Notes: generated by a model not told the origin, from the sequence alone. 64,000 nt of DNA from Acidimicrobiia bacterium (GCA_050248955.1 JBFWRK010000015.1:43585-107584), one strand, 5' to 3'; numbered from the stretch's first letter, positions 3,467 through 24,769 are shown. Numbers and translations are program-made.

Positions 3467-3489
3467 CCACGCACCGACCAGACGCACTC

Positions 3490-3519
3490 CTCGGCCCCGG
3501 CGACCACGCCGGGGCCGAG
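3490..3519 (+). terminator. GC-rich stem-loop downstream of rpmA; possible intrinsic terminator without a U-tract
   Basis: Perfect 12-bp inverted repeat ctcggccccggc / gccggggccgag with a 6-nt loop, 24 nt after the rpmA stop. No T-run follows, so function is uncertain. Confidence 0.45.
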
Positions 3520-3531
3520 TCGCGTCGCCGT

Positions 3532-4728
3532 GTGGATCGCCGGCACCGCCTCGCCACCGATCCTGCGTACACCTACCTGCTCAGCTTCGTCGCGATCGGG
3601 CTGCTGCTCAGCGTGATCGGGCCGGCACTGACCCAACTGCGCCGCCAGGTCGGCGTCTCGCTCGCGTCGATCTCCGTGCTCTTCGCCGTGCAGTCGCTCG
3701 GCTACCTCCTCGGGTCGATCCTCGGAGGGCGGCTCTACGACCGCGGGCTGGGGCACCGGGTCATGGCGGGCGCGCTGGTCGCGTGCGGGATCAGCATCGC
3801 GCTCGTCCCGGCGGTCGGCACCCTCGTCGGGCTGAGCTGCCTGTTCTCGGTGATCGGCTTCGGCGCCGCGGCGATCGACGTGGGTGGCAACACCCTCCTG
3901 GTGTGGAGCCGAGGCGACGCCGTCGGGCCGATGATGAACGCGCTCCACTTCAGCTTCGGTGTCGGCGCCCTCCTGAGCCCGGTGCTCATCGACCGTTCGA
4001 TCGCCTGGGGTGGTGACCTGCGGATCGCGTGCTGGCTGGCAACCGCGCTCAGCGTGGCGATCGCCGCAGTCCTGCTCACCCGCCCTGCACCGTCCAGGTC
4101 ACGGATCGAGGTCGTGCGCCCACCGGGTTCGCGCCGGCCCCGGCCGCCGGCGCTGCTCGTCGCATTCGCCGTCTTCTTCCTGCTCTACGTCGGTGTCGAG
4201 CTTGGGTTCGCCGGATGGATCCACACCTACGGTGAAGAGCTCGAGCTGGGCGGACCCCGGGGGCCGGCGCTGCTGACGGCGCTGTTCTGGATCGGCTTCA
4301 CGGGCGGGCGGCTGCTCGGCGTGGTCTTCGCCCGGCGGGTGGAACCCGCGACGATGCTGCTCGGTTCCTGCCTCGTCGCCGTGGTCGCTGTCGGCGGTCT
4401 CGTGCTCGGCGACGGCACGCCTGCAGTGGTCTGGATCGGCACGTTCGTGTTCGGGCTCGGCGTCGCCCCGCAGTTCCCGACGATGATCTCGTTCGCCGAA
4501 GCGCACCTGCGCCTGACTGGATCGGACACCTCGTGGTTCGTCGGCGCTGCCGGACTCGGCGGGCTGGTCCTGCCGTGGGCGATCGGCCAGGTGATCAGCG
4601 AGACCGACGTCCATGCGATGCCGTTGATCGTGTTCGCCGTCGCCGCGGCGACCCTGCTCTGGTTCCTCGTCGTGCGCGGCATCGCTGCTCGCCACCTCGA
4701 ACGTCGCGACGCCAGCGGCGGTCCGTAG
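3532..4728 (+). CDS. MFS-type transporter
   Basis: 398 aa, about 12 hydrophobic segments, Gly-rich MFS-like loops (GGRLYDRGLGHR). GTG start; high GC3. Confidence 0.7.
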   Translation: MDRRHRLATDPAYTYLLSFVAIGLLLSVIGPALTQLRRQVGVSLASISVLFAVQSLGYLLGSILGGRLYDRGLGHRVMAGALVACGISIALVPAVGTLVGLSCLFSVIGFGAAAIDVGGNTLLVWSRGDAVGPMMNALHFSFGVGALLSPVLIDRSIAWGGDLRIACWLATALSVAIAAVLLTRPAPSRSRIEVVRPPGSRRPRPPALLVAFAVFFLLYVGVELGFAGWIHTYGEELELGGPRGPALLTALFWIGFTGGRLLGVVFARRVEPATMLLGSCLVAVVAVGGLVLGDGTPAVVWIGTFVFGLGVAPQFPTMISFAEAHLRLTGSDTSWFVGAAGLGGLVLPWAIGQVISETDVHAMPLIVFAVAAATLLWFLVVRGIAARHLERRDASGGP

Positions 4729-4814
4729 GGCGCCGGGAACGCCGCGCCGCAGCGCCGTGGCAGGCTGCCGGTCGGGTCGCTCTGGGCAACGAGGATCGCA
4801 ACAGGAGGTGCTCC

Positions 4815-6089
4815 ATGTGGTGGTTGATCGGAGTCGTGCTCGTTGTCGTCGTGATCGCGTCAGCCGGCCTGATTCTCGGCCAGCGCCGCCGCGGTCGCGA
4901 CGGTCGGTGGCGGTCGACTCGGCAGCGGTCCACTGCGCCCGCCGGCACACCACCGCCGAGGAGCGCCACCCCGCCAGCGTCAGAGGAGCCATCGGTCATC
5001 AACGACCCCGAGACCGCGATCACGGCCGTGTACCCGGAGTGGGTGCAGCCGGTCGTCGGGAACACGCTGCTCGTCTTCGCGCACCAGATCACCTCGTTTC
5101 GCGACGAGTTCGGTACCGAACGCTTCCCCGACGAGGTGATCGCCGAGCTCGCTCGTCGCGAGTTCGACTCCACCGACGAGCTCGCCTCGACGCGCGTCGC
5201 GGCGCTGCCCGAGCTGAAGCGGGGCGTCGAGCTGACCCTGAGCGTCGAGATCGACGGCGCCGAGGTGTGGCCCCGCAGCCAGACCCAGCCGCTCGAGGAA
5301 CCGGTGCAGCGGGCGATGTTCAGGTTCCGGTTCCCGCAGCTGCCGCCCGATGGACGGGCCACGGGGGAGGTCACGGCGATGGTCGGCCCGCTCACCGTCG
5401 CCGTAGTCCCGATCGAGTTGCAGGTCGCACTCATCAACGCGTTCGTGTCGGCACGTCCCAAGCGGTCGACCGCGCACGTCTACCAGTCGATCTTCGCGTC
5501 GTACTCGCATCGCGACACCGAGATCGTCGAGGAGATCGAGCGGGCGATCGCGGCGCTCGGCAACCCATACCTGCGCGACGTGGCCGCGCTCCGCAGCGGT
5601 GAGGAGTGGGACGAGCAGCTGCTCGAGATGATCGACGGTGCCGACCTGTTCCAGCTCTTCTGGTCGTCGAACTCGATGAGATCGCCGCACGTCCGCCGGG
5701 AGTGGGAGCACGCGCTCGCCCTGAACCGGCAGGGGTTCATCCGCCCGATCCGCTGGGAGGACCCGATGCCGACGGACCTCGTGGCCGGTCTTCCCCCGCC
5801 AGCGTTGAGCAAGCTCCACTTCCACCTGTACGAGCGGGCACACGACTCCCGCCCGGTGCCGCCGGCTGCTCCGCTGCTCCCGCCACCCACATCCAGGGAT
5901 GTCAGCGTCCCGCCACCGCCACCGCCACCGCCACCGCCGGCGGCGCGCCTACCTCCTGCTCCCGTTCAGTCGGCGCACCCGCCGCCGTCCTTGCCGCACG
6001 CCGGGCCTCGCCGGTCGCGGCGGCTCGTCGGCGTCGCGGCGATCGCCTTGGCCGTCGCGCTCGCGGTGCTGCTGGTCGTGATCCTGTAG
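4815..6089 (+). CDS. TIR-like domain protein with an N-terminal TM helix, a Pro-rich linker and a C-terminal TM tail anchor
   Basis: ATG 4815 is preceded by AGGAGG (4804-4809); the upstream part of the listed ORF (4533-) is Arg-rich junk. TIR-like block IFASYSHRD...LFQLFWSSNSMRSPHVRREWEHAL spans about 5481-5775. Hydrophobic helices at both termini. Confidence 0.7.
   Translation: MWWLIGVVLVVVVIASAGLILGQRRRGRDGRWRSTRQRSTAPAGTPPPRSATPPASEEPSVINDPETAITAVYPEWVQPVVGNTLLVFAHQITSFRDEFGTERFPDEVIAELARREFDSTDELASTRVAALPELKRGVELTLSVEIDGAEVWPRSQTQPLEEPVQRAMFRFRFPQLPPDGRATGEVTAMVGPLTVAVVPIELQVALINAFVSARPKRSTAHVYQSIFASYSHRDTEIVEEIERAIAALGNPYLRDVAALRSGEEWDEQLLEMIDGADLFQLFWSSNSMRSPHVRREWEHALALNRQGFIRPIRWEDPMPTDLVAGLPPPALSKLHFHLYERAHDSRPVPPAAPLLPPPTSRDVSVPPPPPPPPPPAARLPPAPVQSAHPPPSLPHAGPRRSRRLVGVAAIALAVALAVLLVVIL
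5910..5939 (+). repeat. (CCGCCA)4-CCGCCG hexanucleotide repeat encoding ten consecutive prolines
   Basis: Read directly from the sequence; lies inside the TIR-like CDS. Confidence 0.9.
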
Positions 6090-24355: not shown

Positions 24356-24425
24356 CGTGCCTTGCAGGGTACCGAGGGGGTGCATCAAGGTTTCGCCAAG
24401 GTTCGCCGGCAATCCCGCCCGCGCA

Positions 24426-24567
24426 CCGATTCTCTGCTCAAGCCCGCCCCGAAATCGGGTCTCTGCTCGTTCCCGCCCCCAAACCGCGTCTCTACTCGTC
24501 CCCGCCCTCAGACCGCTTCTCTGCTCGTTCCCGGACCGAAATCGGGTCTCTGCTCGTTCCCGGACCG
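24426..24567. repeat. Five tandem ~29-bp repeats with core (T/G)TCTCTGCTCGTTCCCG
   Basis: Units begin near 24426, 24451, 24481, 24510 and 24539. They are directly abutting with no unique spacers. Located in the dgt/obg divergent intergenic region. Confidence 0.8.
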
Positions 24568-24589
24568 GATCCGTCCGCTGCGGAGCCGA

Positions 24590-24740
24590 GAACGGGGTGG
24601 GGTGCGCCGGTGAGCAGAGAACGGGGGCAGGGAACGGGGCAGGGAACGGGGCAGGGAACGGGGCAGGGAACGGGGTGGGGTGCGCCGGTGAGCAGAGAAC
24701 GAGGGCAGGGAACGGGGCGGGGAACGGGACGGGGTCGGGC
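24590..24740 (+). repeat. Two exact 34-nt repeats (gaacggggtggggtgcgccggtgagcagagaacg) flanking four GGGGCAGGGAAC 12-mers, plus degenerate copies; a G-quadruplex-type G-tract array
   Basis: 34-mers at 24590-24623 and 24668-24701. 12-mers at 24624-24671. At least 10 G3-4 tracts separated by 1-3 nt loops on the plus strand. The array ends 6 to 30 nt before the obg start, depending on the start codon. Confidence 0.8.
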
Positions 24741-24769
24741 GGTGGATGGCGATAGCCTCGGTCTACCGT

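Follow-up and report, generated by a model that had tools for sequence, protein, structure and literature searches.

Introduction

The genes rne, rplU, rpmA, obg and proB form a housekeeping neighbourhood whose order in Mycobacterium tuberculosis is rne-rplU-rpmA-obg-proB (Rv2444c-Rv2439c). The same five genes occur in the same order in the stretch of DNA considered here, 64,000 nucleotides of an Acidimicrobiia bacterium (GCA_050248955.1, JBFWRK010000015.1:43585-107584), which is referred to as the window at its full length. Unlike in M. tuberculosis, a convergent dgt-like gene parts rpmA from obg throughout the family Ilumatobacteraceae, and in the window a further 19.8 kb lies between the two genes. 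This additional DNA, which comprises an MFS transporter gene, a gene for a TIR-domain protein and a six-gene operon (g1-g6) built around a DUF6603 protein, is the subject of the present analysis.

The closest described counterparts of this island are integrase-less accessory islets, or hotspots, with which it shares conserved flanks, a lineage-specific, patchy cargo and an incongruent cargo phylogeny. As in such islets, relatives hold different cargo at the same site, and the insertion in the window lies in a convergent terminator gap. It differs from classical genomic islands by the absence of an integrase, a tRNA target, direct repeats and a compositional deviation, and from the usual islands also by its site within the widely conserved rplU-rpmA/obg neighbourhood. 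As a matter of synteny, the island is an ordinary case, namely an accessory islet located where conserved genes leave a permissive gap. The cargo is of greater importance, since it consists of an unpublished DUF6603 cassette that is intact and accompanied by two intact-looking S1 proteases.

Synteny of the rpmA-obg Interval

The interval between rpmA and obg is interpreted as one ancestral gene plus an accessory island of 19.8 kb, rather than as 21 kb of lineage-specific DNA, and this reading is assigned a probability of roughly 0.75. It is based on a comparison with 40 genomes of relatives, one per genus and none of the same genus as the window, of which 24 belong to the same family and 16 to other families of the order; the family name Ilumatobacteraceae was taken from the NCBI label of the L27 protein in a same-family genome (G023), which supports the placement in Acidimicrobiia suggested by the first-pass annotation. 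L27 and Obg domains were located in each relative, and the gap between them was measured where both were found on one contig. In 16 same-family genomes, this distance was about 1.1-1.4 kb, and four further ones had gaps of 2.2, 2.5, 4.6 and 11 kb, compared with 21.3 kb in the window. Among the other families, the two genes were adjacent in six genomes (70-107 bp), and gaps of 0.9-9.5 kb were measured in eight.

Searches with the window proteins (tblastn) in 20 fetched loci, 13 of them from the same family, revealed an opposite-strand dgt-like gene beside obg, within the rpmA-obg interval, in all 13 same-family loci and in two loci from other families. The MFS, TIR and g1-g6 genes were found at this site in none of the 20 fetched loci, and 0/40 relatives carry any of them there. 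In Ilumatobacteraceae, the dgt-like gene is the ancestral occupant of the interval and stands outside the insertion. As it is present in 13/13 family loci, the adjacency of rpmA and obg was lost before the island came, and the locus may serve as a worked example of an apparent linkage break that is older than the island found in it. The true insertion is the segment 3467-23233, i.e., 19.8 kb in the convergent rpmA/dgt gap up to the dgt stop codon, and its gain is shown to be specific to the lineage of the window.

The first-pass annotation had described the rpmA-obg linkage as split by about 21 kb of lineage-specific genes. The accessory character of the interruption was borne out by the synteny alignment and by scoring the presence of each gene in the relatives, in which the inserted genes never occurred at the rpmA-obg site, whereas the length has to be reduced to 19.8 kb because the 21 kb included the ancestral dgt-like gene. 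Conserved flanks with a site that bears the inserted genes in 0/40 relatives, together with the scarcity of DUF6603 in the class (8 of 301 high-quality genomes), agree with an accessory insertion.

All elements of the first-pass annotation (the end of rpmA at 3466, the hairpin, the MFS and TIR genes, the six-gene operon, the convergent dgt-like gene, the repeat spacer and obg from 24746 or 24770) were recovered at the same positions. The gene calls summarized in Table 1 were derived from a listing of open reading frames (ORFs), a frame plot of the GC content at third codon positions (GC3) and Pfam and NCBIfam scans of the window.

Table 1. Features of the rne-proB region of the window, with positions counted from the first nucleotide of the window.
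Feature	Position	Strand	Evidence or remark
rne (RNase E/G), left conserved flank	685-2856	+	PF10150 E=1.7e-103; TIGR00757; 72-88% identity in relatives
rplU (L21)	2897-3208	+	PF00829 E=1.5e-30
rpmA (L27), last gene 5' of the insertion	3212-3466	+	PF01016 E=7e-35
GC-rich hairpin, perfect 13-bp stem	3490-3519	+	sequence; fold -45 kcal/mol for 3456-3535
MFS transporter gene (accessory)	3532-4728	+	PF07690 (MFS_1) E=3e-25
TIR_2-domain protein gene (accessory, orphan-like)	4815-6089	+	PF13676 E=5e-15
Promoter-like (sigma-70-like) site TTGACG-17-CATACT ahead of g1	6107-6135	+	single match in 3400-6400; 0.0 expected from shuffles
g1, S1-fold serine protease with C-terminal helical domain	6169-7632	+	phrog_20754 'protease' E=4.7e-27; motifs SNHHVL/DGAIA/GDSGS
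g2, S1-fold protease paralogous to g1; 4-nt overlap with g1	7629-9008	+	sequence, motifs
g3, DUF6603 protein, 1134 aa, first core gene	9014-12418	+	PF20248 E=5e-129, 431.5 bits (gathering cut-off 27)
g4, 1100-aa core protein	12415-15717	+	central hydrophobic transmembrane segment 590-608
g5, 1864-aa core protein	15714-21308	+	no family or PDB match
g6, 629-aa core protein, last operon gene	21311-23200	+	>4700 homologs, all unnamed
dgt-like HD phosphohydrolase gene, transcribed towards rpmA and the operon	23234-~24355	-	PF01966 and PF13286 (HD/HD_assoc)
dgt/obg divergent spacer, 414 bp	24356-24769	.	tandem repeats: 29-nt x about 5; 12-nt GGGGCAGGGAAC units
obg, right conserved flank	24746 (or 24770)-26008	+	PF01018, PF01926, PF09269; NF008955 above cut-off
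proB	25956-27125	+	PF00696 and PF01472

Continuity of the Assembly Across Both Junctions

The source assembly comprises 69 contigs (5.3 Mb, 69.6% GC) and was obtained from landfill metagenomes. An assembly or binning artefact, by which part of a foreign contig was wrongly attached to the ribosomal-protein neighbourhood of a metagenome-assembled genome (MAG), has to be considered for such a 69-contig landfill assembly, all the more as the nearest relatives of the cassette are found in other taxa. Nevertheless, independent contigs cross both junctions without a difference and with matching depths, and the codon usage of the island is host-like. The left junction is spanned by Logan contigs from three landfill runs covering 2633-4813, 2711-5200+ and 3266-5200+ (rne/rplU/rpmA-MFS-TIR) and the right junction (g6-dgt) by contigs covering 22300-24420 and 22300-24619, all with 0 differences, and the contig depth is the same on both sides of either junction. 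The window sequence is contained in full in three landfill-metagenome runs, which may be the source of the assembly itself and thus represent a second assembler, not a second sample. A chimeric join is very unlikely, and an artefact of this kind is regarded as the most improbable of the explanations that compete with a genuine insertion.

A Variable, Probably Permissive Site Between rpmA and dgt

The rpmA/dgt gap of the family holds other cargo as well, namely an amidohydrolase gene (G004) and a three-gene ABC transporter (G005). Altogether, extra DNA was observed in this convergent gap in at least 4 of 14 family genomes, with the window and G010 counted. This fits a permissive site for unrelated cargo in Ilumatobacteraceae, and the locus provides a worked example of how, among ribosomal-protein genes, unrelated cargo can gather in a convergent terminator gap from one relative to the next. 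The proposed course of events starts from two transcription units that would end in the gap, so that an insertion there would break no promoter and no operon, while obg would be served by the undisturbed divergent dgt/obg spacer, as the layout suggests. Such harmlessness would explain both the tolerance of the insertion and the different cargo at or near this spot in relatives.

The left edge of the insertion is marked by the hairpin downstream of rpmA, which is the probable rplU-rpmA terminator. Since the rpmA-dgt spacers of several relatives also fold into GC-rich hairpins, the insertion is placed just 3' of the rpmA hairpin. It is here that the accessory DNA would have entered the gap in the lineage of the landfill organism, either with mobility genes that would have been lost afterwards or by recombination.

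TadE/TadG-type pilin genes were found in the rpmA-obg gap of seven relatives (G011, G027, G029, G032, G036, G038 and G039), in some cases together with large membrane proteins. They may represent another recurrent, or else an ancestral, occupant of this gap. The TadE/TadG loci (L009, L014, L015 and L017-L020) come from one same-family genome and otherwise from several further families of the order.

The Six-Gene Operon and the Origin of Its Core

The six genes g1-g6 (6169-23200) are located on the same strand and are separated by 2-5-nt gaps or overlap by 4 nt, which characterizes them as one translationally coupled operon. Its last stop codon lies 33 nt from that of dgt. The two proteases encoded by g1 and g2 feature intact His/Asp/Ser motifs, and the four following genes constitute the core. 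The protein encoded by g3 matches the full-length Pfam model DUF6603 (PF20248), and a full-text literature search for 'DUF6603' yielded no paper. No match was obtained for g4, g5 and g6 in Pfam, NCBIfam, PADLOC and PHROGs, nor for any of the core proteins g3-g6 in NCBIfam, PADLOC or PHROGs, and a PDB sequence search with g1, g3, g4, g5 and g6 returned nothing meaningful. An N-terminal signal-like segment was found in none of the proteins g1-g6. In the AlphaFold2 (AF2) model of g3 (mean predicted local distance difference test score, pLDDT, 68.6), a helical N-terminal domain is followed by an antiparallel beta meander of about 650 aa with long hairpins. Giant beta-barrels (SlpA, LptD, ushers) were matched by this model with a TM-score of ~0.1, a likeness taken to reflect a large antiparallel beta sheet and no homology. 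The AF2 model of g6 (pLDDT 68.6) showed no PDB fold match with an E-value below 0.3.

DUF6603 proteins occur in 8 of 41 relatives, and the copies that were located lie elsewhere in the genome and never at the rpmA site. The order g3-g4-g5-g6 is kept in Nitrospirales, Alphaproteobacteria, Desulfobacteraceae, Planctomycetota and several Actinomycetota. It is the same in the 11 loci reaching past g3 (listed as L031-L039 and L041) and in the relatives G028, G017, G003, G019 and G122, while a Herpetosiphonaceae locus is a short contig bearing g3 only. The core cassette is spread with a kept gene order over at least eight phyla. Homolog searches further revealed thousands of unnamed proteins, including those of Verrucomicrobiae, Chloroflexota, Acidobacteriota and Bacteroidota.

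The amino acid identity of the window cassette reaches 82-86% to metagenome contigs (82% in g3 to one metagenome copy), 71-82% to Streptomyces sp. NPDC005799 (82% in g6) and 62-71% to a Nitrospirales genome. Towards the cassettes of the family and order to which the window belongs, the identity is only 25-53%, compared with 69-76% for Obg within the family. In the maximum-likelihood tree of g3, the window falls into a clade with the metagenome copy, Tessaracoccus, Nitrospirales and Verrucomicrobiae (Shimodaira-Hasegawa-like approximate likelihood ratio test, SH-aLRT, 100), and the same-family copies of G017, G003, G019 and G122 are placed in other clades. The row of G039 was disregarded owing to an extremely long branch, which probably results from wrong stop-to-stop coordinates. 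Identities that are higher to other taxa than to the own family, together with the g3 tree, demonstrate at the sequence level a horizontal acquisition of the core from outside the family.

Signs of mobility were observed for related copies. Two tyrosine recombinases are encoded 3.5-5 kb downstream of the cassette in an 83%-identical relative, and the g6 family is present on 14 plasmids, including megaplasmids of Streptomyces and haloarchaea. Beside the cassette of Streptomyces sp. NPDC005799 (L044, 12042-18406), there are an rve_2 transposase fragment, a gene for an unknown protein of 949 aa and a CHAT-protease gene, a context that looks like a conflict island. Moreover, g3 of the same-family genome G122 (L047/L048) is near-identical to that of an 'Intrasporangium sp.' MAG (L033), with tree branches of 0.086 and 0.092. 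This corresponds either to a very recent transfer or to a mislabelled or misbinned MAG.

Probable Composition of the Island From Separate Units

The genes upstream of the operon have distributions of their own. The MFS protein, for which about seven hydrophobic transmembrane (TM)-like segments were predicted at the threshold used, has patchy homologs in relatives, the best of them with 49% identity and at other loci. The TIR protein bears TM segments at both ends (4-22 and 405-423) and a Pro-rich linker. None of the 40 relatives has an ortholog of it, and a protein with 52% identity from a hydrogenase cluster is the nearest homolog. The best PADLOC match of the TIR protein is the SAVED-TIR model (E=3e-8). 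An assignment to Thoeris is not supported, as matches to ThsB are weak (E 0.02-0.04) and the neighbours include no ThsA-like match in PADLOC. A TIR gene travelling with the cassette was considered and rejected, given that other loci are without it and the nearest homolog stands in an unrelated context. Three weak paralog-like TIR matches are present elsewhere in the same genome.

The MFS gene, the TIR gene and the S1-protease pair accompany the core in no other locus examined, and the combination of two tandem S1 proteases with an adjacent gene for a TM-anchored TIR protein was likewise unseen in the other loci. Given that the core is found without these genes at other sites, the island is inferred to be a composite with a stepwise origin. 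It appears to consist of three independent units, i.e., the MFS gene, the doubly membrane-anchored TIR gene and the six-gene operon, the last of which is preceded by a promoter-like site of its own.

The entire 19.8 kb could also have been brought by a single classical integrative element, such as an integrative and conjugative element, a prophage or an integron-like element, which later lost its integrase. All eight inserted genes are tightly packed on one strand, and tyrosine recombinases are found near the closest relative of the cassette, as would be expected from such an element. Still, the island is without integrase, tRNA and direct repeats, the core shows no PHROG matches, and the nearest TIR homolog stands in an unrelated context. 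Moreover, the MFS, TIR and protease genes are absent beside the core elsewhere, and in an 82%-identical copy the S1 pair is replaced by an S41 peptidase. A single delivery is therefore considered improbable, and the stepwise composite is preferred.

Edges, Composition and Age of the Island

In agreement with the first-pass annotation, neither an integrase or recombinase, nor a tRNA, nor flanking direct repeats were detected. All ORFs of 3467-23233 are accounted for by the genes listed in Table 1, the scan for tRNA and transfer-messenger RNA genes gave 0 hits in the whole 64-kb window, and no repeat pairs the two edges of the island. The absence of an obvious GC or codon shift was likewise confirmed. 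With 68.6% GC compared to 69.6% in the genome, the island lies at the 16th percentile of genome windows, its tetranucleotide distance corresponds to the 91st percentile of 238 genome windows, and the codon-usage distances of the individual island genes range from the 1st to the 72nd percentile of host genes matched in length, with a GC3 of ~0.88-0.92 in every gene. The interpretation of the island as old or non-mobile, which the first-pass annotation had drawn from these features, is not established, given a core that is spread between phyla, resides on plasmids and occurs beside recombinases and a transposase fragment. As close copies of the cassette feature 64.5-68% GC irrespective of the host, a recent arrival would look native, and composition is silent on age. 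Accordingly, a missing GC or codon shift is no sign of age when a mobile cassette has the composition of the host wherever it is found.

In metagenomes from sludge and soil, low-depth fragments match rpmA, MFS and TIR with 93-99% identity, which suggests that related populations in other places also carry the left part of the island. All fragments in these other metagenomes were short and of low depth, and none of them spanned a junction or represented an empty site.

These fragments would also suit an ancient vertical block, in which the MFS gene, the TIR gene and the operon stood at the site in the ancestor of the family and were deleted in all other sampled genera. The codon usage and GC3, which are indistinguishable from those of the host, and the absence of mobility genes and repeats from the island point in the same direction. 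Nevertheless, such a scenario needs at least 24 independent losses versus one gain and is disfavoured by the g3 tree. The cassettes of the same family lie elsewhere in the genomes and are 25-53% identical, whereas copies from other phyla reach 71%. In addition, the close relatives of the cassette have 64.5-68% GC, so that even a recent insertion should resemble the host in composition. An ancestral block is therefore rated as rather unlikely compared with the gain of an accessory island in the lineage of the window.

Several points weigh against the interpretation as an accessory island in a permissive gap. The entry route is unmarked, as there is no integrase, att-like repeat or tRNA. Host-like codon usage is compatible with an old insertion after amelioration and equally with a recent one whose donor resembled the host in composition. 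The comparison covers other genera of the family and order, which leaves the gain undated and the stepwise build-up a probable one. The idea of a hotspot is based on a few dozen genomes, and the TadE/TadG variation in other families may be partly ancestral there and not inserted. As regards the proposed function, the core is without a family, PDB or defence-database match, with TM-scores of ~0.1 for the fold matches of g3.

The Exchangeable Upstream Enzyme and a Possible Function

The gene directly upstream of the core was compared between the window (6169-9008) and the loci L031, L033, L037, L032/34/36/38/39, L046 and L027/28/30. It encodes an S1 protease in the window, in Nitrospirales and in Streptosporangiales, and in the latter two a g1 ortholog-like gene precedes the core. 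An S8 subtilase is found in Intrasporangium (L033), an S41 peptidase in the locus whose g3 is 82% identical to that of the window (L046), an M64-like metallopeptidase in five loci and a PhoD-like phosphatase in three same-family genomes. On the basis of these sequence comparisons, the protease gene is read as an exchangeable module of the cassette. In the closest relatives of the window copy, the protease that precedes the core belongs to other classes, and the upstream enzyme is argued from this to be a swappable working part. The cassette copy of the window is apparently fixed. The swappable enzyme offers a tangible starting point for experimental work in those culturable Streptomyces that have close homologs.

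A C-terminal helical domain of ~110 aa (LVN..RR.TVAWHR..GPA) is common to the S1 and S8 partners only and may be a docking domain. A common C-terminal domain of all partner enzymes was rejected, as the M64-like, S41 and PhoD-like partners are without it. According to the proposed mechanism, the core proteins would form a large membrane-associated complex that would deploy the upstream protease.

The giant core, the swappable hydrolase, the horizontal spread, the plasmids and the TIR and CHAT neighbours resemble conflict systems in outline, and a role of the cassette in attack or defence is accordingly put forward as a tentative possibility. It is equally speculative that the cassette represents an undescribed class of machine, in which four giant core proteins, namely the beta-meander DUF6603 protein, a membrane-hairpin protein (g4) and two large partners, would deploy a swappable hydrolase, partly via the ~110-aa domain, and which moves between at least eight phyla, with the rpmA/dgt gap of Ilumatobacteraceae as a recurrent landing site. 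Among described systems, Tc (ABC) toxins and contractile injection systems offer an analogy, as they too combine co-transcribed giant proteins without secretion signals, an exchangeable enzyme, horizontal spread and plasmids. In contrast to these, no match to TcA/TcB/RHS, sheath, tube or baseplate components was obtained in Pfam, NCBIfam or PHROGs. The likeness would hence concern the architecture only, and the cassette is filed neither under these systems nor under any PADLOC system.

Conserved Flanks and the dgt/obg Spacer

The naming of the HD gene is supported, judged by its similarity to known models, as far as 'dgt-like'. The protein matches NF002327 with E=3e-84, and its best equivalog score of 282.9 bits lies below the cut-off of 393. 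Candidate starts of the gene are located at 24319, 24355 or 24385. The adjoining dgt/obg spacer measures ~70-230 bp in relatives and is expanded to about 400 bp in the window by repeats. Logan assemblies fragment into short overlapping unitigs precisely at this repeat-rich stretch. On the far side of obg, the longest ORF of proB shares 53 nt with obg (25956-26008). Because the alignments of the relatives begin at about residue 20-27, the true start of proB is probably downstream of 25956.

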